Positions 1-15,207 of a stretch of DNA of 64,000 nt are shown piece after piece (the first letter of the stretch is position 1; the number at the start of each line of letters is the position of its first letter). The notes under the pieces were generated by a model that saw nothing but the letters and a program-made list of their open reading frames with translations, was not told the DNA's origin and did not search any database. The DNA is taken from the IMG/VR virus record IMGVR_UViG_3300037851_000284, positions 155,055-219,054 of that record; one strand, written 5' to 3'. The translations under genes were made by a program, and so were the position numbers. The stretch comes from a virus (Duplodnaviria > Caudoviricetes).

Positions 1-3000
1 ATTTCCTATCCAATTGTGATGAACCAAAGCTTGGTATACTTGTAGTATAGTTAGAATATATAAGGTTCGGCTTTGTTTTCCACTCATTTAACAACGGGTT
101 AGAATTACTATAAGAGTTCTTTAAGATATTATTTATTATATTACTACGTTGTTTTTTATCATTCATTTTGTTTAATCGTATAAATGCTTCTTTTGAGAAG
201 GAAGCATTAACGGTGTCCAAAGGAACCCGTCTATCAAGTTCTAAATCAGATAGTATTCCGTTATGATTTCCATTAATATCAGAACCTAAATCAACAAACC
301 CGTCTAGAGGATTTAATGAATTAGACATTTGGTTTGGTCTAAAAAAATTAGCAGCTAGAAATACTGCCGCTCCTATAGCTCCAAATTTTCCAGTAGTTTT
401 AGTAAAATTAATTGCTCTAGGATATTCTCTTAGAATCCTTGATCCAAAGCTTTCTGCTGCCTCATTAAAATTAATGTTTTCATAAGGCTCGCCTATTTTA
501 AGTTTATCTAATATACTAATAGCTTTATTCAGTTCTGTTTGTTCACTAATCCAAGCCTTTGATTCTCCCTTTGTTCCAAACTTTTGATGATATTTTATTA
601 TTCCTTCAGTTAATAGTTGATGAGCCTTATCTCTTTCTTCGTTTGTTTCAAAATAATCAGATAAGATATCCTTTAACGCTAAACGTGTCTCTGGATTTTT
701 ATTATATGGATTTGTTAATGCTGCTACTGCTAAAGAAATTCTCTTAATTTTATCGACTCCGTGCTTAATCATGCTAATTGGTAGTTGTTCCATTCCAGCC
801 AATCCAGTAGTTAATGATGTTCCTATAAACTTATTTAAAGTAAGAGTGTTATTTTTAGATAAGCTATCCATCTGCATTATTTGTCTACCTCTGGTTTCTA
901 ATATATTTGTGAATATACCAACTGCTCTTTTAGAAACAGACATCAAGGCTGATTCGTCCACCATCTTTTTAACTATATCATTAGTAACTACACTTGGATC
1001 CCTAGTTGAAATTTTTTCAACCATATCTATTAGATTTCTAAAGTTTCCTTTAATAGCATCTTCTGCGTCTTGACTTCCTAGTTCTACGGTTTTCTCGCTA
1101 ATTCTTCCCGTTTCTCTATCAAAATATCCAACTCTAGCTTTTGAATTTTCAAAACCAATAATTTTTCTTTGTTCACTTATAGCATCTCGAACCGTTTTAA
1201 ATTTACCGTTCTCTTTTATCTTAGTATTTAATATATCAATAAATGACCTGTTAACAGATTCGTGTAAGTTTAACAATTCTTTTTCTGTATTAAAAGCATG
1301 TACCACTCCAAACATTTGGTCTCCGTCAACGTCTCCTCCAACCAACTTCCAATATTCTGCAGCAACTGCTATTCTATTAATATCCATTCCAAAATAACTT
1401 GCTATTTCTTTAGGAACAACATTGAATCTAGCTGTTAAAAAAGGATTGGTTCCAGAAGGAGTATAAGGAGGACGAGTAATAAAACCAGTAAATTTTCTAT
1501 GCATCCATGCTCTATTTTTAATTTCAGAACCGAACACATTACTTATTCTATCATAAAAATTTTTGGTTTGGAGAAATTCAGATTCTTTAACATCAAATTC
1601 GAACTTTTTAAAAGTTTCTTCATGAACCATAACATCATGTAGTGAAAAGTCATTAACTACGTTTCTAGTCCACTTATCTAGAAACTCTGCGTGCTTTCCT
1701 TTAAATCCTCTTGCTCCCCAACCTTCAGAATCCATAATATCTTTAAGTCTTAAATATAAAGAATTAGCATCTTGAGCAGAAGCAGCAAACCCTTGAGGAA
1801 GATGGAGGTCTGTTTCAGAATTATATACATGCCTTAGTAAATATGTAAGATATTGTTTTTTAAGGAAATCTACAGATTCGCCAACAACCTTAGAATCTTC
1901 TTTTTTCATATTTTTTTCTGCCATCATATATGCAAGAAGAACATCATCCATTAATTTAGTACTTCTGGTAGAAAATCCAAAAGCTGTTCCCTTTTTATTC
2001 TCCTTAGATACTAAGTTAATAACATTTTCGTGATGAGCAGGAGCTTCCATTAAAAGATATTTTAATTTAACAGTCTTATTAGTTTTATCAACTTCTGCTA
2101 CAAAACTATCTTTCTTTTTCTTTAGTTTATCAAAGATATTTAATACTTCATCCGTAGATGGCAATTCGTCTTTTGTGGCAATTTGATGTAACAAGCTCTC
2201 TATATCTAGAGTTATTGTATTACCTAATTTAGGATTAACTGATAATGCAAACACTCCTTTCTTTTGAGCTAACATAGCTCTTTGTTGCGCCGATTCTAAA
2301 GACATAATAGTTCTGTTCTTGGGATCTATTACGGCTTTAGCAAAATTATCATTCTCCATATCATCAATTATTTCTCCAGCAACCTTTAACTTTTCTTCTT
2401 CAGAATTCTCATTAATAATATCAGATACTTTTTCAATTAATTCATTTTTTTCATCGTCTCCAAAATTATATCTTTTAAGTGCTTCTAACGATAATCCTTT
2501 TTTAATATCTAATATATCATCTATCTCCTCCAGACTTAACGTTTTCATTGTGCCAATATTAATCATTTTTAACTGGAGTCGCCTAAAGGATCTAATAGCA
2601 TCTCCAAGTTTACCAGATATTCTATGTGCTCTAGCCATTTCTATTATCTTTAAAGAAGTAGTATCTAATGCTCCCAGATGGGCTTTTTGTAATATATTTC
2701 TTCTTACTTTTATACGCGCGGGTCTAGCTTCAGTCCCATTCATTATAGCATAAAAACTAAATCTATCAGGATGTTCTATTCCTATATCCCATTTTCCTCT
2801 ACCTTTATATTTCTGTCTTGCCTCAAATAACATAGGAACTAATTTACCTGTTCTAATAGCTTCTAAATCCGGTAAGATTAATTCATTATAGAAAGTATTA
2901 TCGAAAGCTTTGTCCTTAAAAACGGCGCTAGCCAATCTAGCTGATTTGTTTTCGTCTTTAGATATTTCTTCAAGATAATTATTATATATGTTGCGTATGT

Positions 3001-6000
3001 TCTTTTTAGCGTTTTCTACTCCACCTAAAGCATTATAATAATTTTCTGCCCTTTCTGTCGTCCAAACTTGTCCAGTATCGATCATGAAAGATCTTAATTC
3101 TTCAGTAGTTAGAGAAACGTTTCCAAAGAATTTATGAGCAGCATTAATCAAATTAACATCAGTAACGTTAGGAAACGAGCCAAGATGCGACGACCGATGT
3201 ATAGGTATTTTGGTTATATCATGTATATCGGAATTCATCTTTGCCGCCCAATATTTAAGCTTTTGTTCGGCTACTACTTGTTCTTGAATAGTACCGTTTT
3301 CCATTACATTCAGCAAGTGGTCAAATCCCTTCATAACAGTAATGGTTTTCATTGGTCCAACATAACCCTTCTCTAGAAACTGGGCTGGACCAAATCCCTG
3401 CACTCCACCATACATTTTTTCTCGGGTAATCATATCCATGAATACAGATACTGCTTTACCACTAAGTCCTTTACCAACCATTGATACCCTATCTTTATCC
3501 GTGATAACATATTTGATATCAGCCATCATTTTAATAGAACCAGCACTATCATTCCAGATATTTAATTTAGTAATTCTTCCATTAACAGGAGCATTAAAAC
3601 TAATTTTTCCCAAATCTCCTCTCGAAGCCATATACTTTGTTCCCTTTGGAATTTTTGTAAGTCCTTCGTTTTCCTGTATAACTTCATAAGCCGCATAGTC
3701 ATAATCGTCCTTGGTTAGAGCACTACCTTTTTTACTTTTAATTACTCTTAACTTTTCTTTAATCTTTCCCTCAAGTTTAAGAACTTGATAATTAAAACTA
3801 GGATCCTCGGCCCTAGAAGAAACATCAGAAAGATTAACTCCTATATCAGTATGCTCAAGATTAACATCTTTAAATATTTCAGAAGTAAGATGATGTCCTC
3901 CTTCTTGGCTTCCAAAGTTAGAAATAGTTGAAAAATATTTTACCATAACTGTATTACTAAATAAATGAGTCATAGCATCTGCGTCTCTGCCAAAACTCAT
4001 AAAGTCTAATTCTCCTCTAGATATCCATGGAGGGATAATCTTACGGGCATATTTTCTTAACACGAGAGGATCTAATCTTTCATTCATGGATTTGCTATGT
4101 AGACCAGCGACTACAGCAGAAGTTCCCATCATAAATTGGTTAGCTTGTTTTGCTGGAGGATAATCTGGAATGGGTAAAAAATGTCTAGTAGTAAATATAG
4201 AGAAAGCATATTTAGCCGCTTGACCAGAAGATAATGCTGTAGAAGAAGGAATAAATCCAAATAAGTTTGTCATTTCTATATCTCTAGCATCTTTTATTTG
4301 GTCGTCAAACGACTTAAATGCGTGATAAGAATTATATTTATATTCTAACTCTTCATATGCCGAATCAAATTGTTTTTTTCCTTTATGATATTTTTCCAAT
4401 TCGTGACCTAATAATAAATGTAATAACATACTGTCGGTTCCAGCATCGTGAGCAAATAGAGTTTTGTCATTATTTAATTTTTTTAATAAGGCAGTACTAA
4501 CCACTAAATTACTTTGTGGTCTACCTCTCAAAGTATTTATTGCTTCTATAATATTATTACTTGTTTCAAAATTATGAGCAGATAAACCTTTTTCTTTCAT
4601 CATTAGCTTTAATAAATTAGTTTGAGACAATGACTCTACTCCACCAACCACTACTCTATTAATTTCTACAATTCCATGAACGTCTATATGACTAATATTA
4701 GCATATTTTTTAAGTTTGCTAAAACCGATGGGGTCCTTAGATTCTAAAATTTCAAGCATTTTGAAATCGTAATAGGTTCCGAATTTAGAAGTAAGATATA
4801 TAGGTTTGTCAGGATTTTCTTCAACAACCCTGATTATTTTTTCTACCAAATGTCTTGCGATATCGTTGTTATCTTTAAAATCTCTTCCCTGAGTTTTTGT
4901 TAACGATTTTATTTTTTCTCCCCATTTGTTAATAATATCTTCTGGGGATCTACCTCTTAATTCATTTTTTTCTTGAGCACTAAGATATGTATCTCTTATC
5001 CATTCTGCCTGCTCCATATCAAATGGAAGCTCTTTCATTTTATCAACACCGTGACTGCTAAAAAACTTTTGCATATCATGTAAAGTTACTTTTCCAGTAG
5101 AACTAATATCTGCCACTGAAAATCCAGCTTGAGTTATTTGTGTATGAGCGTCAGTTATTTGAACATTGGGACCAGCTTTCTTATTAGAAATAGTTTCTAA
5201 GTCCACACTTATTACCAGAGCCCCATCAGTTAATCGAGCTAGTCTTTTGAATCCTTGTAAGTCTTTTAGGTTATTACCCCATTTTAATTTATTAGATACT
5301 CGCTCATCCCTATAATAAAACATTCCTTGTTTTATTGGGTCTCTATTAGTTGTTTCGATTCTACTAGCAACCTCAAGAGTATCTCTCATTATAAAATTAA
5401 ACCTACTAAAAGCATGTTCTGGGTTATATTTAAAATCACTAGATAGATTGCTTTTTATATACCTAATCAAATTTCTTATAGTAGCCTGTGTCATATTCAT
5501 ATAAGGCATTTTTTTATTTATAGGCGCAGGGTCAGGAATCTTAACATCATATTTTTGAACTCCATATGGAGATGTTGCTGGTAATATTCCATATTGAGCC
5601 AAAGGAATATTTAAAACTTTTTCTTTCCCTCGAGCAACGTGTTTTGCTGAAAATCTCAAATAATATCTGGGACTCTCCTTAGGACCATCTTGAATTATAG
5701 CTAAACTATGAGATTCAAATCCATTATCTTCGGTAGCTATTTCTTCCAATGCTGCCATTAAACTTTTAATATCATTGGTATAATCAAATTCTCCTAATAA
5801 CTTAAATTCTGGCGTAATTGGAATAAATTTCCTACTATATAGAGATGAAGATGTTACTGGTTTTCTTTTTAGTTCTTCGTTTGATAATACGGTTTTAACT
5901 TTATATTTATTTATTTTCCCAATATAGCGAAGATTAGCTCCTATATTTCTATTGGTTTCTCTAATATTTGTATAAAGCATTAACTGTTTTGTTATTTCAG

Positions 6001-6745
6001 GAGTAATAGAAAATAGCTTACTGGTAGTATTATAAGCCACTATATTATGATTATAATTTGCTTTAAAAGAGGTTAATCTTCTAATATACATATCTGCTAA
6101 ATCAGGATCTTCTCGAGTATATAAATCAATTAGTTTATTTAATTTGATACCGTCTTTATCGGGGTCATTTAATAGTTGTAATTCTTTTCCGTGTCCTTCG
6201 CTTATATACGGATTATGTAAAAAATAATTCTCCAGAATATCTTTTCTTATTTCAAATAACATACTATCTTTATTCATTTTAATAATAGATAAGTATGCTT
6301 TAGGGTCATTAACTTCTCCAATGTTTGAAAAAGTTATATCGTCTTTCATTTTAGATAATATATCGTCTTCTATAGTAGATATTTGATTTAATTTATTAGT
6401 TCTTAAAGTATTGCCAATCCCTCCTTCTGGATAGGCATTTCGAGCCGGAGAAATTTTTTCGATCACTCTATCTATCTCGGTTTCAGGTTGGAATGACCTA
6501 AAAGGTAAATCTAATGTAGCATTAGGTCCAAGAATTCTTTTTTGAGAATCAATACGTTTATAATCTTCTCTTTCGATTATTCTTTTTGCGTTACTATCAT
6601 GAATCCGGTTTATAATATCTTTAGCTGGCCCCTTCATTTTATGAGCAGCAAACACGAGACCAGACAATACTCCAACTTTTAATAATGTTCGAGTAAACCA
6701 CCCTTCGTTCTTATCATTTTTATTATCTGGATAATATTGGTTCAT
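1..6745 (-). CDS. Giant single-chain two-barrel (beta+beta'-like) RNA polymerase with N-terminal DEDDh exonuclease domain; probably virion-associated; 3' end outside the window
   Basis: Not in the ORF track. ATG at 6745 lies 2 nt after the stop of the 2819-aa gene (MNQYYPDNKNDKNEGWF...). All lines I translated in this frame were open, and the track lists no minus ORF here, as expected for an ORF running off the edge. Beta-like motifs: HFLPIPDYPPAKQANQFMMG (~4125-4185), NTVMVKYFS..GSQEGGHHLTSE (~3870-3955), SFNAPVNGRITKLNIW, ITDKDRVSMVGKGLSGKAV (~3450-3505). Beta'-like motifs: TRNVVNDFSLHDVMVHEETF, FITRPP, GGDVDGDQM (1313-1339). Confidence 0.88.
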   Translation of the reverse strand, partial: MNQYYPDNKNDKNEGWFTRTLLKVGVLSGLVFAAHKMKGPAKDIINRIHDSNAKRIIEREDYKRIDSQKRILGPNATLDLPFRSFQPETEIDRVIEKISPARNAYPEGGIGNTLRTNKLNQISTIEDDILSKMKDDITFSNIGEVNDPKAYLSIIKMNKDSMLFEIRKDILENYFLHNPYISEGHGKELQLLNDPDKDGIKLNKLIDLYTREDPDLADMYIRRLTSFKANYNHNIVAYNTTSKLFSITPEITKQLMLYTNIRETNRNIGANLRYIGKINKYKVKTVLSNEELKRKPVTSSSLYSRKFIPITPEFKLLGEFDYTNDIKSLMAALEEIATEDNGFESHSLAIIQDGPKESPRYYLRFSAKHVARGKEKVLNIPLAQYGILPATSPYGVQKYDVKIPDPAPINKKMPYMNMTQATIRNLIRYIKSNLSSDFKYNPEHAFSRFNFIMRDTLEVASRIETTNRDPIKQGMFYYRDERVSNKLKWGNNLKDLQGFKRLARLTDGALVISVDLETISNKKAGPNVQITDAHTQITQAGFSVADISSTGKVTLHDMQKFFSSHGVDKMKELPFDMEQAEWIRDTYLSAQEKNELRGRSPEDIINKWGEKIKSLTKTQGRDFKDNNDIARHLVEKIIRVVEENPDKPIYLTSKFGTYYDFKMLEILESKDPIGFSKLKKYANISHIDVHGIVEINRVVVGGVESLSQTNLLKLMMKEKGLSAHNFETSNNIIEAINTLRGRPQSNLVVSTALLKKLNNDKTLFAHDAGTDSMLLHLLLGHELEKYHKGKKQFDSAYEELEYKYNSYHAFKSFDDQIKDARDIEMTNLFGFIPSSTALSSGQAAKYAFSIFTTRHFLPIPDYPPAKQANQFMMGTSAVVAGLHSKSMNERLDPLVLRKYARKIIPPWISRGELDFMSFGRDADAMTHLFSNTVMVKYFSTISNFGSQEGGHHLTSEIFKDVNLEHTDIGVNLSDVSSRAEDPSFNYQVLKLEGKIKEKLRVIKSKKGSALTKDDYDYAAYEVIQENEGLTKIPKGTKYMASRGDLGKISFNAPVNGRITKLNIWNDSAGSIKMMADIKYVITDKDRVSMVGKGLSGKAVSVFMDMITREKMYGGVQGFGPAQFLEKGYVGPMKTITVMKGFDHLLNVMENGTIQEQVVAEQKLKYWAAKMNSDIHDITKIPIHRSSHLGSFPNVTDVNLINAAHKFFGNVSLTTEELRSFMIDTGQVWTTERAENYYNALGGVENAKKNIRNIYNNYLEEISKDENKSARLASAVFKDKAFDNTFYNELILPDLEAIRTGKLVPMLFEARQKYKGRGKWDIGIEHPDRFSFYAIMNGTEARPARIKVRRNILQKAHLGALDTTSLKIIEMARAHRISGKLGDAIRSFRRLQLKMINIGTMKTLSLEEIDDILDIKKGLSLEALKRYNFGDDEKNELIEKVSDIINENSEEEKLKVAGEIIDDMENDNFAKAVIDPKNRTIMSLESAQQRAMLAQKKGVFALSVNPKLGNTITLDIESLLHQIATKDELPSTDEVLNIFDKLKKKKDSFVAEVDKTNKTVKLKYLLMEAPAHHENVINLVSKENKKGTAFGFSTRSTKLMDDVLLAYMMAEKNMKKEDSKVVGESVDFLKKQYLTYLLRHVYNSETDLHLPQGFAASAQDANSLYLRLKDIMDSEGWGARGFKGKHAEFLDKWTRNVVNDFSLHDVMVHEETFKKFEFDVKESEFLQTKNFYDRISNVFGSEIKNRAWMHRKFTGFITRPPYTPSGTNPFLTARFNVVPKEIASYFGMDINRIAVAAEYWKLVGGDVDGDQMFGVVHAFNTEKELLNLHESVNRSFIDILNTKIKENGKFKTVRDAISEQRKIIGFENSKARVGYFDRETGRISEKTVELGSQDAEDAIKGNFRNLIDMVEKISTRDPSVVTNDIVKKMVDESALMSVSKRAVGIFTNILETRGRQIMQMDSLSKNNTLTLNKFIGTSLTTGLAGMEQLPISMIKHGVDKIKRISLAVAALTNPYNKNPETRLALKDILSDYFETNEERDKAHQLLTEGIIKYHQKFGTKGESKAWISEQTELNKAISILDKLKIGEPYENINFNEAAESFGSRILREYPRAINFTKTTGKFGAIGAAVFLAANFFRPNQMSNSLNPLDGFVDLGSDINGNHNGILSDLELDRRVPLDTVNASFSKEAFIRLNKMNDKKQRSNIINNILKNSYSNSNPLLNEWKTKPNLIYSNYTTSIPSFGSSQLDRK

Positions 6746-6747
6746 AT

Positions 6748-9700
6748 TTATAACCCGTATTTTTCTCTTCTATTAAGAGCGTTAAAAATAGTTCTAGACC
6801 TATCTCTCCTTATTAGTATATCGATCTGGTTGTGTTCGTCTGAGTTATTATTTATATATACTTGGACAGACGATTTAATTCCGTCCTTACTAAACAGATT
6901 ATTAATCGCTCCTCTGATTCCGGCCTGATTAATATTTGGGCTAGGAGGAGAATAATTATTTAATTTTTCTATATTAGCTGCTTTTATATCCATGTTACTT
7001 TCTTGTAAACGCAACATCTGTTCGTTCCAACCCAAACCAAATTCAAATTGATCGAATCCTTGTTCTTGAACAGTCTTTAATTTTATATCATCTAATGGAA
7101 CACTAGGATCCAGCACGCTTCTATCAAATGCGTATTTTGGTCTTCCCGCTGCTATTTCTTCGCTACTTCTTTGTATATAGTTTTTAGTGGCATCCTTACT
7201 ATCATTTTTTGACCATTGATGTTTTAATGCATTAGCTAAATCGTCAGGAATATATTTTAAAATTTCCTCTCGTTTTTTAGGGTCTCTTGTATTTAAGAAT
7301 GATTCTATATATGGTTTCTCGAATGGAGTGGTAGCCCTAAATAAATTAGCGACAGTAGCTCCTTTTCCTCCTTGATTAAACGCTGTTAATGTAGCTTCTT
7401 TTTGTTGTAAGTATTCTTGTTGAGTTAATCCGGTAGACAATTGAGCTAACATGTCATTTCTTTCAAATTTGGCTGCATCAAAGTAAGACATAATCTCTCT
7501 TTTTTCCTTTATTGATGCAGGAATATAAGTAGAATTAGTCATAAATCTGTATAATCCATGACCCGTACCATAAATAGCTCCCGCTCCAACTCCAACAATA
7601 GCGCCTAAAGGTCCGCCTAAAATTAAACCTCCCATACCATAAGATAATGCTCCAGCAAACGGGTCAGTTTTAGCAGCAAGACCCCTAGAATATGGTTCCA
7701 ACCATCCTCTTATTGGTTCATCCCAAGGTTTATATTCCTTTCCATATAATCTGGTCATTTTATAATGTTCTAACGGGTCTTTAGCAGCAAATAATTTATT
7801 TACTATAAAAGTATTAGTATTAGTAAACCGTTCCCACAAGGCACCTATCATTCTTTCTGGCAAACTATATTCTGCTGCTGCTTTTATATCTTCATTAATA
7901 GACTGTATGTTGGCGGTGTTTTCAGGATGTAATACTTTTCCTTTAAATCGATTCGGGTATAGTTCGTAAGATCTAATCCTAGCTTGTTTTATTTTAAGAG
8001 CACTATGATATTTTTCTAAATCGTCTTTATTCAACACTCCATATTTAATTTGAGTATCAACTATCTTTTTTGCTTCTTTATATTCAAGACTATTTGGAGC
8101 TACATCAGCCAATATTTTCAATCTATCAACCCAAGAATAACTGAATCCTAAAGTATCAGCTACTCCTTCTTCCATCATAGTAGCAGCAATTTTTCTTGCT
8201 TCATATAATTTTTTGACATCTTCTTCCCATCTACTTTTACTATAAGGTATATCAAAAGTCTTAACTTGAGAAGGATTTTCTCTATTAACATATAATAACG
8301 TTCCTCGTTTCATATTAAGCATACGTAAATAAAAATTAAGCTGCGAATAATGTTCTGATTTAGGAGCATCTAATACTGCGAATGCTTCGTCGTTAATAGT
8401 TTTAATTTCTAATGCTCTTCTTCCTCTACCTCCATAACCATCTCTAATAATAGCATCAACGTGACCAGTAATGTCGTTCTTTACATCTTGAACAAAAGCT
8501 TCGGCTTGTATTAACATTCCTTCAGACGCTAAGGTTCGTTGTACAGATTCGTGAAATGCTGTTCCTTTTTCCAATATATTGTATGATTCTAATTGAGTCG
8601 GAGGAATTAATCCAGTAAAATATTGGACTATATTTTGCGTTGTTCCTCCAATCATGGAATTATGTACTAATGCAAAAGGAACACAATAATTATGATTATT
8701 TTCAATCGTTAAATCGTACACTTTACCAATATATTTCTTTTTAGAAATAGATTTAATTTTATAAGGTATAAATCCTTTATAAATTAAAACATTAAGTTGT
8801 TCATTATTTTTATCAAATCCAAAAATATTAGATAATACATTTGCTTGATTATCATATAATCTAATATCGTATCTTTGAGTGGATGAAATTATTCTATCTT
8901 CTTTAATAAATTGAACATCTTTTCCTTTTCTATAACATAGTCCTGGTCGAAATCCTAAAGAACATAATAATTTAAATATACTAAATGATAGATTTTCTAT
9001 ACAAGTAGCTACACCTATTTCTGAACCAGATTTTTTATTACTTTTTTTAATATACCAACCATCTCCAGCGAAATAACCAGATAATAAAGCATTAATATTT
9101 TTATTACCAATGTTATAAATTTCTTTAGGAAGATGTTTATTTTTTGCTTTTCCGCATAAAGATTCTAAAATATCTCTCAATATAGTTGAATTTGAAGTAA
9201 CTCTTGCACTATTATTAGTAATTAAAATAGTAGTAGAAGAATGAAATAATTTTTCTGTTATATTTTTAATAAAAGTATGATATTCTATTTCATTAGAATG
9301 AAATGAAAATGTAGTTTGACTAGAAGATAGAGATCCTTCTGCTAAATAAAATCCAATTAATTTCATTAATTCTGAAGTAATATTTAAGTATCTATCATAT
9401 CTTTTTATTCCGTTACTATATACTCCATTTTTTTTAAATGTATATTTATTATATATTTTTAATAATTCAAATAAATCTATACTTTTAATATTGTTTGTAA
9501 TTTTAATAATTGGAGTAACTAAATAATCTCCAGATTCTAAATCTTTAGCTTTATTTTCAGTTATACTATAGTCTGATTCTTTACAATATTTTAATGCGTT
9601 TTTATTTTTACATTCAAAACAACATCTTTTAGATTTTGGTTCATTTGGATAATATTTACATTTATTAGTTTTTATTGAAAAAATATCATGATTATCTGTG

Positions 9701-12700
9701 ACATTAATATTATATTTTTTATTAATTCCAACCAATTCTATATCTAATATTTCTCCATCAAAATCTTTTTCGTGTAATGCTAAAATTTTCTGATAAGTTC
9801 CATCGTTAGTTAATGAGTCTTTAGCGGTAATAATAGGAACTAATCCTTTAGATGTATCAATCAAAGTGTCTGGAGTAAAACAAGCTCTAGCAGGTAACGT
9901 TCTCTTTACGTTTGTATGAGTGCTAAGATATGCATCTCCAGGAAGTCTCAGTTCTCCCCTAAGAATCTTTTCGTATGGGTCTCCTTTTAAAAAGTGAGCT
10001 GGTAACCAGTTAGGCATCCTGTTTGGTATCGGATTTAAACCATACTGTCTATAATTTGGTTTTTCTATTAATCTTCTTAGTGGCTCGGTTAATATACCCA
10101 TACCGCCGAGGTTTAAATCTGTGTAGCTTCTACTAAAAGATGCTATTCTACCGGCTGTTTGTAATGTTGGTACTACAGTATTTTCTCCAAATATTCTATT
10201 AGTTATTGTTCCGGCCAAGAATCCTTTTAATCCGGCAAAGTTTTGTATATCATATAAGAAGTCTTCTGCTGCGGATTCAGACCAGTTCCTATTATTCATT
10301 AGGCTAATTTTTCCAAAATTATTAGCCATTCCTGCTGTAGTATTTCCAGGTCCTCCGTTGGGATTCATTAATGCCATTCCTTCTGGAATAGTAGGAGGTC
10401 TTATAGCAAAAGGATATGGGTCTCCTGGAGTTCCCCCTCTAACAGAAGAACCACCCTCTAGAAACTCTTGATGCATAGTCTTTGGAGGTTTTAATATTCT
10501 ACCAACCGTAGAAGATAAGATTTTGCCAACTCCAGGAAACTCGTCAAAAATACCTCCAGTAATCGGGTAAGGTCTAGTAAAATAATGTGAGTTGTGATAT
10601 GATGCTAAAATTCCAAGAAAAGAGTGAGACTTTTCTATTTTAACATCTATAACATTACCAGAAAATTTAGTAAAATTTATCTCTTTAATTTTAACATAAA
10701 TATAGTTATCATCAATAAAATACCATTTTGGAGACTTTATTTGTTTATTAATTTTAAATCCGATATATGATCTTAAATCATTAATATTATTACCATAAAC
10801 AAATAATAAATGTTGATCTGCTTCATTTTCTTTTTTAGATTTAATATATGAGTATGTTGGTATAAATCCAAGCGAAAATAAAATACTTCTTATTTGAAAA
10901 ATTAAATTTTGTGAAACAGAAATACAAGATATTGAACAATCATTAGATTGATCAGATCCGTTTCCTCTAAAATATCCAATTATTAACTCTTTTAATAAAA
11001 TAGAAGAAGAATAATATATTTCATCTGGGATGTGTTTATCATAACAAGAACTTCCAAAAGAACTTTTAAAAAATCTAGCTAATATCGAATTTGAACAAAT
11101 AATTCTAAATTTATTTCCATCTTGATGCGTTGTGCACTCTATCTTAAACAAAGATTTTATAATCGAAATTACATCATTATGATATTCTGTTTCTTTAGAA
11201 TGAAAATCAAAAACAACAGTTCTATCTCCACAGTATCCTTCCGCTAAATAATACCCAAATAATCTCCATAATAATCTATTTCTAATTATTTGTTTTGGAA
11301 TATTTTTATTATTATGTTTTGTTTGATTGTGAATACTAACATAACCAGAATTTGATTTTTCTTTAATTTTAATTCTAGGATAAACCAAAAAATCATTTTT
11401 TTCTAATTCATCTGCTCTAACCCATTCTGGTATATAATTTTTCTTATATTTACACCTTTTGCATTTTATCCAAGTTTTATTAAAACAAGGAGTTTTTCTA
11501 TTTTTTCTATGAAAACAAATAGAGGATTTAATTGCTAAATATCGGTGTTCTCTAGTAGTTTTATTATCAATATTAGATAAGGCAGTTTTAATAGAAATTA
11601 TATTTTCATCAATATGTTTAATCCATTTTTCTAAAACTTTTTGTTTTGTTCCATTGTGTGTTAAAATAGTATCACCAACATTTAAATCTTTAATTTGTAT
11701 AACTTCACTATTTTCTTTTAATATAAGAGTATCTTCTACTACACAACGCTCCATATAATACGGATCTAATATATCGCCAACGTTAAATCCAAGAAGCGGA
11801 AGAGGCTCGTGTATTAATCGTCTGAAAGCAGACCCATATAAAGTGTCAGTTTCTTTCCATCTTGATTTAGCTCTTACATACCAGTTTGGAGAATATCCTA
11901 CTACATTACTGCCTTCCCATGGAGTTCCTCCAAGCAACCAAGTGGGAGATTTCATTATAGGAACTTCTTTTCTCCCAGAGTATTCTTCTTTTAATTCCTC
12001 ATAAGATTTTGTAAGATTGGGAAGATATGGACTAGCCAGCCTATTAACTAATGCTCCACCAATAGCATATCTAGCAACTCTTAAAGGAGGAGATTTTGAC
12101 ATTAATCCGAGTACACTACCAAACATCATTCCAGGAATAGACGATTCAGAGAAAGGAGCTAACCCATGAAGATATTTCATGGTACCAGTAACACCAGTAA
12201 TATCTGCTACTCGTGCTCCAAATAAACGCGCTTTGGCTATATTATCAGCAGCTAGACCTGTTATTCCTTCTTCTAATGAGGTTTCATCAAATAGTGGGTT
12301 AGATGCAGTTATAGTATCAAGTATTCTATATGCTCCGAATACCGCAGCTGTTGTACCAACCACTCTTCCTATATATTTCAGATTTCCAGTCCACCCATGA
12401 TTTTCCATATAATATTTTTTAAATGGTAACCATTCCGCCATCATGTCCGTGGTTCGTTCGGTGGCTTTTAAGGCAAAGTCTCCAAGTATTTCTAGTCCTT
12501 TATCTGGAAGAGACACAAACGGATGAGGGTCAGTAGCAAACTTTATTCTACTAAAGGTTTTTTCTTGTGATAATTCTATGCTCGATTTAATTATATCATT
12601 ATTAGAAATAAAATTAATTAACTCGTTAGTAATATCCCATTTATTCTGCTTAGCTCTGTCTCTAACGTTATCTAGTATTAATTTTGTTCCATCAGAAGAA

Positions 12701-15207
12701 AAATCCAAACCTTTTATTAATTTATCTTCTCTTATAATAGGAGATAGCTTTGCGTGTAATAATAGAGCATCTTTTTCAGATCGGGTAATTAAATTTTTTC
12801 TATACCATTCTTCAGCTAGATTTAATAAAGGATGCGGTTTGTTTTTATCTGATTTTTTTAGAAAATCTTTATTAAAAACGTCCTCTATAACATTAGTTCT
12901 AGCTACATCATATGATGTCATTTCGGAGAAATGACCAAGCCGTTGTATTACATTATGATGTTTTGCTTTTTCAGGATATGCTTTAATATCTTCTATTGAT
13001 CTTATAACGTCTTTATTAGCAATTTCTCCTTTAGCGTGTAGAGCAGAAATTTTATCAATGAATGTTTGATCGTCCCATATATAAGATAACGGATTATCAT
13101 CTATATCAACTGCTTTAGCGGCTATCGACATAGCATCTCTAGACCTACCTACACGCGAAAGTATTTGGGAAGTGCGACCATAAATAGTATCAATAATAGA
13201 TAACGCTTTACCCATCATGCGAGTATCGTGTTTTCCAAGCGGGTCATCGAATATACTATTAAACTCTAATCTATAATCTTTAGAAGTAGAAAATCTAGAT
13301 TCTATTTTTCTAAATAATTTTTCAGCTGCTGCAGGCAAACCAAGTTTGGCTCTATCTAAAAAGTGTAGCCATTTATTATTTATTATTTTACCATGGTCTA
13401 GTTCTTCAATTAATTTATTATATTCTGCAGTACCAAGTTCGTCTTTTAAATGTTTTAAGCGATTAATAGTAATACTTTTTAATTCATGAGATTTATCATA
13501 TCCCGTTTTGTGTGAGAAATATAAGCTTCTATGAGTATCTACTTGGTGAACTGTAGCTCCGTCAAATATAGACCATTTTCCGCCTTTGGTATAAATATAT
13601 AATCTATTTCCATCTTGGTCTCCTACATCAGCAACGGAACTATAGTTTTTATCATTAAATCTAAATTCGGGTCTATTTCTGGTACCAAAGTAATCAGGAG
13701 AATCAGCAACCCAACGATGAGTATTAGTAAGGTCTGCTAAACTAAAAGTTGATTTAATAAAAGGAGCGCGAACTTGATATGTTAAGATAGGAGATAGTGC
13801 TTTTTTAACTAAGTGGATGGGGTCTAAGAAATTTAAATCAACTCTACCACCTATTATTCTAGGATTTTTCCAATCTTTATATATATTATGTCCTACTGTC
13901 ATATTAAGGATATTATCCATTAATTGATCAGCATCACTTTTTACATATTTTTGCTTAAGATTTCCTAAAACATCATTAATAACATCCTTTTTTAATACGT
14001 CTTTTAATAAAACAGGCTGAAGTACTTTACCGAATATTTTCTGTAAAATAGAGGTTCTGTCTTTATGTTTATGTATTTCTGAATAAAAAGTATCCTTTAA
14101 TTGAGCACCATCTAATGGTATCTTCTTAAGTCCTTTATATTCAGCCTCTTTTCTTGTCCATTCCTGAAATTCATAAAAAGTGTTTAATCCAGCATATTTA
14201 ACAGTAGAAGTAGGACTGGTCTTTGGTTTATTAAGGGCGGCTTTAGCTTCATCTACAGCCGTTTTAAGGAAGCCAAATACCTTTTGGGTACGCTGTCCAA
14301 ATGATATATTAGGTGCCTTCCTTGCCTCTCTAACGGCTTCTGGTAGGGTATATAGAGAATCTTGTAAACTTCTAAAGGCTTCACTTACGTTTTTACCAAA
14401 ATGTAGGCCTTTTTTAATAGAAGAATCGACAAACTCACTTTCGTGTTTAGTTAATAAACCTTGAAATCTATTATCTAATCTATTATCAGAGAATCTAGAT
14501 GCCCAATTTAATACCTTTTTACCGAATTCTCCTTGGAAAGTCTTTTGAACTGTTCTGAATCCTGCAGAACCAATAGCTCCAACTATAGGACCAGCCGCAC
14601 CAAAAGTCATACCGGCTATAGTACTATATCCCAACCACTTACCAAAATTAGATATCTTTCCAGGAACGTCATACCATTCCTTCTTCTCAAGTCCCATATC
14701 TCTAGTAAAACCAAGCATTTGGTCTACACCATAAGCTACAGCCATACCAGAAAGAACATTACGTTTCCATACTCCAGCAACAGATGCTATAAAAGTAGCA
14801 GGGTTTTTAAAAGCAGTTTGTAATCTTTTTATACCATATCCAGACTCACCTTTCATTCCCTCTAGAAGTTTTCTTCTTTCTTGACCGGCCTTGTAAACTG
14901 ATGATTCAGTAATTGTTCTTTTTATGGGAGAGGTATAAGCCTTTATATTTCTATAAGTTGTTATGGTTTTATCTGCTAAATTCTTTCTTATGCCTGTAGT
15001 GGAACCAGCAGACCAAGATTTTAAAGTAGATTTAGAGAAGCCTATTAAACGGCGAGTTACTATAGACCCAGCTATATTTAGAGCAAAAGCTGTCCCCATT
15101 AACTTTAGAGTGGAACCAATTTCCATTCTAGGAGCAACATTACTCTCGGGTTGATAATAATTTTCATTATCATTATCAAGAGGATTATAGTAAGTATTTT
15201 GAGCCAT
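6748..15207 (-). CDS. Giant tail/virion protein in the tape-measure position, with two inteins and a C-terminal PD-(D/E)xK nuclease domain
   Basis: 2819 aa, directly after the tail chaperone-like genes. Long Gly/Ala-rich amphipathic stretches, two Hint+LAGLIDADG inserts, and nuclease motifs GTAFHESVQ...GHVDAII...LEIKT...SQLNFYL (~8230-8580). About 2026 aa after removing the inteins. Confidence 0.7.
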   Translation of the reverse strand: MAQNTYYNPLDNDNENYYQPESNVAPRMEIGSTLKLMGTAFALNIAGSIVTRRLIGFSKSTLKSWSAGSTTGIRKNLADKTITTYRNIKAYTSPIKRTITESSVYKAGQERRKLLEGMKGESGYGIKRLQTAFKNPATFIASVAGVWKRNVLSGMAVAYGVDQMLGFTRDMGLEKKEWYDVPGKISNFGKWLGYSTIAGMTFGAAGPIVGAIGSAGFRTVQKTFQGEFGKKVLNWASRFSDNRLDNRFQGLLTKHESEFVDSSIKKGLHFGKNVSEAFRSLQDSLYTLPEAVREARKAPNISFGQRTQKVFGFLKTAVDEAKAALNKPKTSPTSTVKYAGLNTFYEFQEWTRKEAEYKGLKKIPLDGAQLKDTFYSEIHKHKDRTSILQKIFGKVLQPVLLKDVLKKDVINDVLGNLKQKYVKSDADQLMDNILNMTVGHNIYKDWKNPRIIGGRVDLNFLDPIHLVKKALSPILTYQVRAPFIKSTFSLADLTNTHRWVADSPDYFGTRNRPEFRFNDKNYSSVADVGDQDGNRLYIYTKGGKWSIFDGATVHQVDTHRSLYFSHKTGYDKSHELKSITINRLKHLKDELGTAEYNKLIEELDHGKIINNKWLHFLDRAKLGLPAAAEKLFRKIESRFSTSKDYRLEFNSIFDDPLGKHDTRMMGKALSIIDTIYGRTSQILSRVGRSRDAMSIAAKAVDIDDNPLSYIWDDQTFIDKISALHAKGEIANKDVIRSIEDIKAYPEKAKHHNVIQRLGHFSEMTSYDVARTNVIEDVFNKDFLKKSDKNKPHPLLNLAEEWYRKNLITRSEKDALLLHAKLSPIIREDKLIKGLDFSSDGTKLILDNVRDRAKQNKWDITNELINFISNNDIIKSSIELSQEKTFSRIKFATDPHPFVSLPDKGLEILGDFALKATERTTDMMAEWLPFKKYYMENHGWTGNLKYIGRVVGTTAAVFGAYRILDTITASNPLFDETSLEEGITGLAADNIAKARLFGARVADITGVTGTMKYLHGLAPFSESSIPGMMFGSVLGLMSKSPPLRVARYAIGGALVNRLASPYLPNLTKSYEELKEEYSGRKEVPIMKSPTWLLGGTPWEGSNVVGYSPNWYVRAKSRWKETDTLYGSAFRRLIHEPLPLLGFNVGDILDPYYMERCVVEDTLILKENSEVIQIKDLNVGDTILTHNGTKQKVLEKWIKHIDENIISIKTALSNIDNKTTREHRYLAIKSSICFHRKNRKTPCFNKTWIKCKRCKYKKNYIPEWVRADELEKNDFLVYPRIKIKEKSNSGYVSIHNQTKHNNKNIPKQIIRNRLLWRLFGYYLAEGYCGDRTVVFDFHSKETEYHNDVISIIKSLFKIECTTHQDGNKFRIICSNSILARFFKSSFGSSCYDKHIPDEIYYSSSILLKELIIGYFRGNGSDQSNDCSISCISVSQNLIFQIRSILFSLGFIPTYSYIKSKKENEADQHLLFVYGNNINDLRSYIGFKINKQIKSPKWYFIDDNYIYVKIKEINFTKFSGNVIDVKIEKSHSFLGILASYHNSHYFTRPYPITGGIFDEFPGVGKILSSTVGRILKPPKTMHQEFLEGGSSVRGGTPGDPYPFAIRPPTIPEGMALMNPNGGPGNTTAGMANNFGKISLMNNRNWSESAAEDFLYDIQNFAGLKGFLAGTITNRIFGENTVVPTLQTAGRIASFSRSYTDLNLGGMGILTEPLRRLIEKPNYRQYGLNPIPNRMPNWLPAHFLKGDPYEKILRGELRLPGDAYLSTHTNVKRTLPARACFTPDTLIDTSKGLVPIITAKDSLTNDGTYQKILALHEKDFDGEILDIELVGINKKYNINVTDNHDIFSIKTNKCKYYPNEPKSKRCCFECKNKNALKYCKESDYSITENKAKDLESGDYLVTPIIKITNNIKSIDLFELLKIYNKYTFKKNGVYSNGIKRYDRYLNITSELMKLIGFYLAEGSLSSSQTTFSFHSNEIEYHTFIKNITEKLFHSSTTILITNNSARVTSNSTILRDILESLCGKAKNKHLPKEIYNIGNKNINALLSGYFAGDGWYIKKSNKKSGSEIGVATCIENLSFSIFKLLCSLGFRPGLCYRKGKDVQFIKEDRIISSTQRYDIRLYDNQANVLSNIFGFDKNNEQLNVLIYKGFIPYKIKSISKKKYIGKVYDLTIENNHNYCVPFALVHNSMIGGTTQNIVQYFTGLIPPTQLESYNILEKGTAFHESVQRTLASEGMLIQAEAFVQDVKNDITGHVDAIIRDGYGGRGRRALEIKTINDEAFAVLDAPKSEHYSQLNFYLRMLNMKRGTLLYVNRENPSQVKTFDIPYSKSRWEEDVKKLYEARKIAATMMEEGVADTLGFSYSWVDRLKILADVAPNSLEYKEAKKIVDTQIKYGVLNKDDLEKYHSALKIKQARIRSYELYPNRFKGKVLHPENTANIQSINEDIKAAAEYSLPERMIGALWERFTNTNTFIVNKLFAAKDPLEHYKMTRLYGKEYKPWDEPIRGWLEPYSRGLAAKTDPFAGALSYGMGGLILGGPLGAIVGVGAGAIYGTGHGLYRFMTNSTYIPASIKEKREIMSYFDAAKFERNDMLAQLSTGLTQQEYLQQKEATLTAFNQGGKGATVANLFRATTPFEKPYIESFLNTRDPKKREEILKYIPDDLANALKHQWSKNDSKDATKNYIQRSSEEIAAGRPKYAFDRSVLDPSVPLDDIKLKTVQEQGFDQFEFGLGWNEQMLRLQESNMDIKAANIEKLNNYSPPSPNINQAGIRGAINNLFSKDGIKSSVQVYINNNSDEHNQIDILIRRDRSRTIFNALNRREKYGL
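8659..9882 (-). mobile_element. Intein 2 (408 aa, LAGLIDADG) in the 2819-aa protein
   Basis: Junctions LPARA|CFTPDTLI ... FALVHN|SMIGG. Block B VTDNHDIF; LAGLIDADG blocks LIGFYLAEG and LLSGYFAGDG. Confidence 0.93.
10591..11745 (-). mobile_element. Intein 1 (385 aa, LAGLIDADG) in the 2819-aa protein
   Basis: Junctions YYMER|CVVEDTLI ... ILASYHN|SHYF. Block B TTREHRYL; LAGLIDADG-like blocks LFGYYLAEG and IIGYFRGNG (second has N in place of D). Confidence 0.93.

Follow-up and report, generated by a model that had tools for sequence, protein, structure and literature searches.

A DEDDh-type exonuclease domain in one chain with an RNA-polymerase-like core in a family of giant phage tail-module proteins

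The analysis concerned a giant gene of an uncultured phage (Duplodnaviria; Caudoviricetes) in a stretch of 64,000 nucleotides, here called the window, which covers positions 155,055 to 219,054 of the IMG/VR record IMGVR_UViG_3300037851_000284 (G000; 219,054 bp, viral). The gene lies at 2..6745 on the minus strand, with 2,248 codons inside the window and the last two codons and the stop past the window start; the full protein (P0002) has 2,250 amino acids. Residues ~509-801 were identified, with high confidence, as an intact DEDDh 3'-5' exonuclease domain. It stands N-terminal to a putative RNA polymerase (RNAP) core in the same polypeptide and is a constant component of a giant-protein family.

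The features of the exonuclease domain are given below by window position and by residue of P0002, with E. coli DnaQ (epsilon) and RNase T as references.

4343..5221, minus strand: DEDDh (DnaQ/RNase T-type) 3'-5' exonuclease domain, residues ~509-801, delimited by the AlphaFold2 (AF2) model and supported by Foldseek and VIA
5186..5215, minus strand: ExoI motif VISVDLETIS, residues 511-520, in the giant-gene frame
5195..5203, minus strand: D515-L-E517 of ExoI (D515 at 5201-5203, E517 at 5195-5197), on strand beta1 (model residues 11-21); invariant in 32/32 sequences
5045..5059, minus strand: S-S-H-G-V, residues 563-567, counterpart of the 'HGI' of epsilon (H66-G-I); S563 and H565 each kept in 29/32
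4820..5017, minus strand: helical insertion 1, residues ~577-642 (model helices 79-144), ~58 residues longer than the epsilon stretch
4754..4789, minus strand: ExoII motif SKFGTYYDFKML, residues 653-664, in the giant-gene frame; KFGTYYDFKML within it covers residues 654-664 (4754..4786)
4766..4768, minus strand: catalytic D660 of ExoII, at the N-terminus of helix 162-172 after the beta4 strand 151-155; invariant
4679..4690, minus strand: HIDV, residues 686-689, in the giant-gene frame
4682..4684, minus strand: D688, sixth of the invariant residues, at the end of beta5; matches epsilon D129 and RNase T D150
4466..4588, minus strand: insertion 2, residues ~720-760, helical in the model, between the S705-L706 helix and ExoIII, with ~43 extra residues
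4421..4456, minus strand: ExoIII motif FAHDAGTDSMLL, residues 764-775, in the giant-gene frame
4433..4450, minus strand: H766-D-A-G-T-D771 (H-x4-D) of ExoIII, at the start of the last long helix; H766 and D771 invariant

The original prediction had been made by a model from the letters and a list of open reading frames. Its ExoI-like motif VISVDLETIS, with D at 5201-5203 and E at 5195-5197, was recovered exactly in the minus-strand open reading frame 2-6745, and its ExoII-like motif, HIDV and ExoIII-like motif were found in the same frame at the positions it had given. The interval that it had assigned to the domain, 4420-5230, does hold the domain; its limits were revised, as the modelled domain runs slightly beyond it (4343-5221, minus strand).

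Domain sequences of 32 family members, 17-43% identical to P0002, were aligned over 304 columns. Only six columns are invariant, namely D515, E517, D660, D688, H766 and D771. These are the DEDDh catalytic set together with the beta5 Asp common to epsilon (D129) and RNase T (D150). The five residues that the original prediction had picked from a single sequence as matching DEDDh motifs are all among the six, for which the chance is ~3e-10. In ExoII, K654 and G656 were kept in 31 of the 32 sequences, and the family consensus reads KNGxxFDLxxL against HNAAFDIGFM in epsilon. The canonical H-x4-D spacing of ExoIII was seen in only nine family members, those closest to the phage studied.

The fold was predicted with AF2 for residues 499-802 on the basis of the 32-sequence alignment (pLDDT 91.2, pTM 0.90). 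An earlier model built from three sequences was poor (pLDDT 52.6) and was left out of the fold searches. The elements of the model used follow in the order beta1-beta2-beta3, helices, beta4, helix, beta5, helices. A Foldseek search against the PDB gave 60 matches at E <= 0.001, the top 50 of which were all RNase T, TREX1, TREX2 or ExoI (E about 1e-4, probability 1.0). VIA-align returned the PolC exonuclease, Cas2-DnaQ, the DinG exonuclease, ExoI, 3'hExo, ERI2, TREX2 and epsilon at Z 12-13.8, with 164-192 residues aligned at a root-mean-square deviation of 2.8-3.5 A and 8-18% sequence identity; against epsilon (1j53), 172 of 174 residues were aligned. Matches among the BFVD and AlphaFold DB clusters were phage and cellular DEDDh exonucleases and polymerase exonuclease domains. 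All language-model neighbours of the domain that bear a family name belong to DEDD families, arenavirus NP among them. An RNase H-like fold, on which the original prediction had staked itself, was thus predicted, and it was of the DnaQ type in AF2, Foldseek and VIA alike.

The motifs were mapped to E. coli DnaQ and RNase T, the sequences of which were taken from the E. coli genome record. The map is colinear, and the spacing is equal except for the two insertions, which add ~58 residues between HGV and beta4 and ~43 residues ahead of ExoIII relative to epsilon. The correspondences are as follows.

DLET: DTET of epsilon
SHGV: VHGI of epsilon
KFGTYYDFKML: HNAAFDIGFM of epsilon
S705-L706: S144-L145 of epsilon
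D688: D129 of epsilon and D150 of RNase T
H766...D771: H162...D167 of epsilon

H766 and D771 were also paired with H181 and D186 of RNase T by hhalign, in an alignment that covers the ExoIII part only and is not significant. The end-points of the VIA alignment place model residue 12 on epsilon residue 7 and model residue 286 on epsilon residue 180; the ExoI alignment (10 on 8) agrees. By these end-points, D515 and E517 (model D17 and E19) would fall on D12 and E14 of epsilon, and H766 and D771 (model H268 and D273) on H162 and D167. We infer from the alignment end-points that the catalytic residues probably meet in one site. Among the features that mark DEDDh enzymes, an RNase H-like fold, D-x-E on beta1, the ExoII Asp at the start of a helix, and H-x4-D were found. 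Because the catalytic set is intact and strictly conserved, the domain is expected, by analogy with the DEDDh family, to be an active two-metal 3'-5' exonuclease with His as the general base.

Standard sequence searches missed the domain. Scans with Pfam and PHROGs of the whole protein and of the domain gave nothing relevant, and sequence and profile searches of the PDB gave no exonuclease match. The profile search against RNase_T models that had been proposed with the original prediction came out negative: Pfam RNase_T (PF00929) had no match to the 2,250-residue protein even at E up to 10, and none in the whole phage record. The domain was therefore filed at superfamily level and not as a member of PF00929, the gathering threshold of RNase_T not being reached. 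PF13482 (RNase_H_2) matched 2 of the 32 relatives (best E 1.7e-4). When the family profile was aligned by hhalign to single sequences of E. coli RNase T or DnaQ, either ExoIII alone was aligned or the result was not significant. With both insertions removed, the alignment became colinear over all motifs and was still not significant (P 0.1-0.3). The two helical insertions probably explain the failure of the Pfam, PHROGs and PDB sequence searches, and of hidden Markov models (HMMs) on this domain. Searches by tblastn of GenBank phage records with the domain, the whole protein and two divergent relatives gave no match.

The distribution of the domain was determined by searching 1.84 billion representatives exhaustively with an HMM profile of three domain sequences. 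The search returned 33 proteins, and 31 of them belong to one giant-protein family: 29 have 2,234-2,481 residues, and two are shorter (1,679 and 1,874 residues) and probably truncated. The domain was located at about residues 450-890 in all 31. Of the other two matches, one is a 158-residue fragment and the other, a repeat protein, seems spurious. No full-length homologue of the domain that stands alone or is fused differently was found among these representatives. A search with the C-terminal 560 residues gave 18 proteins, all of 2,238-2,451 residues; six were new, and all six carry the exonuclease domain. With the conserved C-terminal tail alone as bait, eight IMG/VR loci and one contig of a metagenome-assembled genome (MAG) were recovered, each with an open frame of 2,281-2,506 residues and the exonuclease domain at about 490-850. 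The motif DxD[GA]D was present in seven of the eight IMG/VR loci and in the MAG contig, and the new members as a whole show DxD[GASN]D. Among the proteins and loci recovered, no relative lacks the exonuclease. All full-length relatives (36 proteins and eight IMG/VR loci) have 2,230-2,510 residues, with the domain at ~490-890 and a DxDxD motif downstream. Because every full-length relative carries both, the exonuclease is a fixed module of the giant-protein family and not an optional add-on. The survey of homologues for co-occurrence that had been suggested with the original prediction thus found the exonuclease domain and the DxDxD motif together in each full-length relative recovered.

The MAG contig (L005, JALNZI010000006.1; 92.9 kb, with a member of 2,281 residues) agrees in length and range with one of the viral loci (L006, IMGVR_UViG_3300035208_001008) and is hence the same contig; it is filed both as an IMG/VR viral genome and in a 'Candidatus Omnitrophota' MAG. 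Probably the contig is of phage origin and was binned with the MAG, so that it is unreliable as host evidence.

The part of the protein C-terminal to the exonuclease is less firmly identified; its motifs point to a core like that of beta'-type two-barrel RNAPs. Two of them carry this assignment.

1466..1474, minus strand: R1758-P-P1760 (R-x-P); P1760 invariant and R1758 kept in at least 90% of 30 sequences
1319..1333, minus strand: D1805-V-D-G-D1809, metal-binding motif of the beta'-type double-psi barrel; the three Asp invariant in 30/30 sequences

The DxDxD motif lies ~1,290 residues downstream of the exonuclease, and R-x-P precedes DxDGD by 47 residues, an arrangement also seen in beta' (NRAPT...NADFDGD). 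In the PDB profile search, the ten best matches were all beta' at NADFDGD, at an E of only about 2, and hhalign against residues 442-470 of E. coli RpoC gave P = 0.0015. No match to Pfam PF00623, PF00562 or PF05183 was found in the phage record at E up to 10. PF00940 was likewise without a match in the record; the control genomes had none either, and this result is hence uninformative. The language-model neighbours of the polymerase parts were weak, the best being an RNA-dependent RNA polymerase (RdRP; 0.83 at rank 80) and the domain LPD38 (0.80). A full-length alignment of 30 proteins has only 20 invariant columns; six are the exonuclease residues and three are D1805, D1807 and D1809, so that the giant protein, as judged from this alignment, holds two sets of strictly conserved acidic residues. 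That the exonuclease is fused ahead of an RNAP, as originally proposed, agrees with the position of the domain N-terminal to the RNAP-like core in one polypeptide and with the invariant DxDGD downstream.

The position matching N458 of beta' (two before the first Asp of NADFDGD) is occupied by a Gly in P0002 (~1334-1339, minus strand; residues 1803-1804) and in the family consensus. N458 of beta' helps to recognise ribose in cellular RNAPs, and the Gly may bear on sugar selectivity. No Pfam-detectable RNAP, be it multisubunit, RdRP-type or T7-type, was found anywhere in the 219,054-bp record. If the giant protein is the sole RNAP of the phage, its middle and late genes would be transcribed by the host enzyme or by one that was not recognised. 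The record also holds a family B DNA polymerase (G000:C1:69508-70146).

The window has ~33% GC and covers a structural and replication region with tail sheath, major head protein, portal, terminase and ribonucleotide reductase. In coding-strand order, the sheath is followed by the tube region, small open reading frames, a giant of 2,819 residues with inteins, and the giant gene; in a relative the order runs on through an open reading frame of 59 residues and a hub-like giant of 2,342 residues to Baseplate_J. The giant genes of the exonuclease-polymerase family sit between a tape-measure-like giant and the baseplate hub. By gene order the protein belongs to the tail module and occupies the tape-measure position or the one beside it, as do virion RNAPs of the type of P23-45 gp96, the two-barrel RNAP of a Thermus phage that is fused to the tape measure (Chaban et al., Nat Commun 2024, PMC10770324). 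The upstream giant of 2,819 residues in the tape-measure slot (6748-15207, minus strand) matched Pfam Intein_splicing (4.7e-18), LAGLIDADG_3 (1.2e-9) and Hint_2; a PD-(D/E)xK nuclease was not among its Pfam matches at E <= 0.01. The phage record is classed as 'linear', and no end repeats were found in it. A plus-strand open reading frame of 60 residues within the exonuclease domain (4318-4500) was taken as a chance frame because the conserved frame of 2,250 residues lies on the opposite strand.

Two hydrophobic segments of the giant protein were located by hydropathy scan.

6644..6700, minus strand: N-terminal hydrophobic helix, residues 16-34
341..397, minus strand: C-terminal Gly/Ala-rich hydrophobic segment, residues 2117-2135

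The most conserved stretch of the whole family (FFRPNQ..NPLD.F.DLG...ASFSK) comes after the C-terminal segment. Both segments and the conserved C-terminal stretch would suit an ejection protein that inserts into the membrane.

The explanation that we favour for the whole, at somewhat less than an even chance, is an intact exonuclease in a virion-delivered giant protein, acting in cis with the polymerase as its editing site. The giant protein would travel in the virion and enter the cell together with the DNA, in the manner of the P23-45 virion RNAP. The exonuclease would strip nucleotides from 3' ends by two-metal-ion hydrolysis. As an editing site separate from the polymerase, it would cut back nascent RNA at its 3' end after misincorporation or backtracking, and the minimal single-chain polymerase could thereby resume with neither a trigger loop nor Gre factors. 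In Pol A, B and C, the fused DEDD domains that have been characterised act as editors of the nascent 3' end, and functional coupling is favoured here because the exonuclease never parts from the polymerase, even at 17% identity. Editing of 3' ends or rescue of arrested complexes in cis is tentatively preferred to processing of DNA ends; the lack of detectable transcript hydrolysis in YonO, and its lower fidelity, add to the rationale (PMC5467207). The original prediction had named proofreading or RNA trimming as one option, beside template preparation and anti-defence, and any of the three may hold. Several points weigh against the favoured explanation. No sequence-profile method was significant for this protein (Pfam, PHROGs, PDB; hhalign P 0.1-0.3), and ExoIII has H-x5-D (consensus AHxSPxxD) and not the canonical H-x4-D in 23 of the 32 relatives. 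We know of no DNA-dependent RNAP that uses a separate editing nuclease, and high fidelity may not be needed for early transcripts. The structural neighbours include both DNA-specific and RNA-specific enzymes at tied VIA Z, so that the fold does not tell whether RNA or DNA is preferred.

DNA exonucleases predominate among the top VIA neighbours (PolC exonuclease, Cas2-DnaQ, DinG exonuclease, ExoI, epsilon, TREX), and a somewhat less likely reading is that the domain works on the 3' ends of DNA where the entry channel opens, as the genome comes in. It might there resect or blunt the incoming end for loading of a sigma-less polymerase, shield that end from host end-dependent nucleases, or start the degradation of host DNA. 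The N-terminal hydrophobic helix and the order of exonuclease before polymerase would suit a membrane-anchored machine that meets the DNA end first, as in the P23-45 model (PMC10770324). Template preparation would not be straightforward, however, because a 3'-5' exonuclease leaves a 5' overhang, and an RNAP on the overhanging strand, reading 3' to 5', could only run outward to the end; moreover, strict co-inheritance with the polymerase fits functional coupling equally well. That the exonuclease is an independent effector, delivered as cargo and uncoupled from the polymerase, was judged improbable. It might then degrade host nucleic acids or defence molecules, such as host mRNA, retron or abortive-infection nucleic acids, or oligonucleotide signals. 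Virion-delivered giants often hold several enzymatic modules, arenavirus NP, one of the language-model neighbours, uses the DEDDh fold for immune evasion, and a weak neighbour of the middle region, taken as a lead only, is the 'large polyvalent protein' domain LPD38 (0.80). Cargo effector modules vary between relatives, however, whereas the position of this domain is constant in 36 full-length proteins, two shorter entries and eight extra loci, down to 17% identity, and the 1.8 billion representatives hold no stand-alone or differently fused homologue.

A polymerase with a 3'-5' exonuclease is the hallmark architecture of DNA polymerases, and the family consensus has Gly at the N458-equivalent. 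A two-barrel core that makes DNA or extends DNA primers, with the DEDDh domain as its proofreader in parallel to archaeal PolD, was nevertheless considered very improbable: DxDxD has three invariant Asp, as RNAPs do, against the PolD consensus NxDGD (PMC7708050), R-x-P retains its R, the phage encodes a family B DNA polymerase of its own, and the gene lies in the tail module and not in the replication module. It is hardly credible that the RNase H-like fold has degenerated or serves a structural role alone, or that the motifs resemble those of exonucleases by chance. Either would accord with the fact that no curated sequence model recognises the domain; the catalytic residues, however, are among the only invariant positions across 32 divergent sequences, and the confident fold match points to DEDDh enzymes alone.

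In cellular RNAPs, transcripts are edited by the polymerase's own active site together with the Gre/TFIIS factors. Editing in cis, if true, would mean that the exonuclease takes over the role of trigger-loop and Gre/TFIIS-assisted cleavage, and that a transcriptase which enters through a contractile tail acquired, independently, a pol/exo architecture in the style of DNA polymerases. The family might in that case be the first DNA-dependent RNAPs in which a second active site, that of a DEDDh exonuclease in the same chain, is reserved for editing, a claim that we regard as doubtful. An invariant exonuclease beside a minimal RNAP provides a directly testable case for proofreading in transcription; alternatively, it could reveal how a sigma-less injected polymerase readies the incoming genome end. 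Pfam and PHROGs, as used in standard annotation, overlook both predicted enzymes of this conserved structural-module gene for 2,250 residues. The family occurs on uncultured phage contigs of up to about 230 kb and bears on the reading of giants in the tape-measure slot.

With the epsilon/RNase T group (DnaQ, RNase T, ExoI, PolC exonuclease, Cas2-DnaQ, TREX1/2) the phage domain has in common the fold, the order of elements, the D-x-E, D and H-x4-D residues, and the secondary motifs HG(I/V), (I/V)D on beta5 and SL..L; the VIA alignments span essentially the entire reference domains. Unlike this group, the phage domain has two helical insertions, and most relatives have H-x5-D. Its host chain is a tail-module protein of 2,250 residues and not a DNA polymerase, a helicase, Cas2 or a stand-alone enzyme.

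Like P23-45 gp96, the protein is a giant of the tail module with a DxDGD core and hydrophobic segments typical of tape-measure or ejection proteins, and each presumably goes into the cell before the DNA or along with it and transcribes the first genes there. The P23-45 virion RNAP is thought to sit at the entry pore and to transcribe the pre-early genes (PMC10770324); the text of that paper mentions no nuclease or exonuclease. In P23-45, a siphovirus, the polymerase forms the N-terminus of a tape measure of 5,002 residues, whereas here it occupies the C-terminal two-thirds of a separate protein whose neighbour is a tape-measure-like giant, and the phage has a tail sheath. No sequence similarity between gp96 and the 2,250-residue protein was detected in PDB sequence and profile searches. 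YonO of SPbeta and gp66 of the crAss-like phage phi14:2 resemble the protein in having a single chain with both barrels, DxDGD and very low similarity to cellular RNAPs. Neither is known to carry a fused exonuclease, and none came up in the literature searches. For YonO, a single-chain two-barrel RNAP, no detectable transcript hydrolysis and a lower fidelity were reported (PMC5467207).

The physical tie between a 3'-5' exonuclease and a polymerase is shared with the DEDD domains of Pol I, Pol B and PolC, with coronavirus nsp14 ExoN-nsp12, and with DP1-DP2 of PolD. In PolD, a two-barrel core does operate together with an exonuclease of its own (PMC7708050), although DP1 is an Mre11-like phosphodiesterase and not a DEDDh enzyme. 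In full-text searches of the literature, no paper that describes the fusion of a DEDDh domain with a two-barrel RNAP came up, in agreement with the original prediction, to which no such fusion on phage two-barrel RNAPs was known. The polymerases of the known pairs replicate genomes; the partner found here looks like a transcriptase and keeps all three Asp. Both parts are of known kinds, and it is their obligatory fusion that is new to the literature searched.

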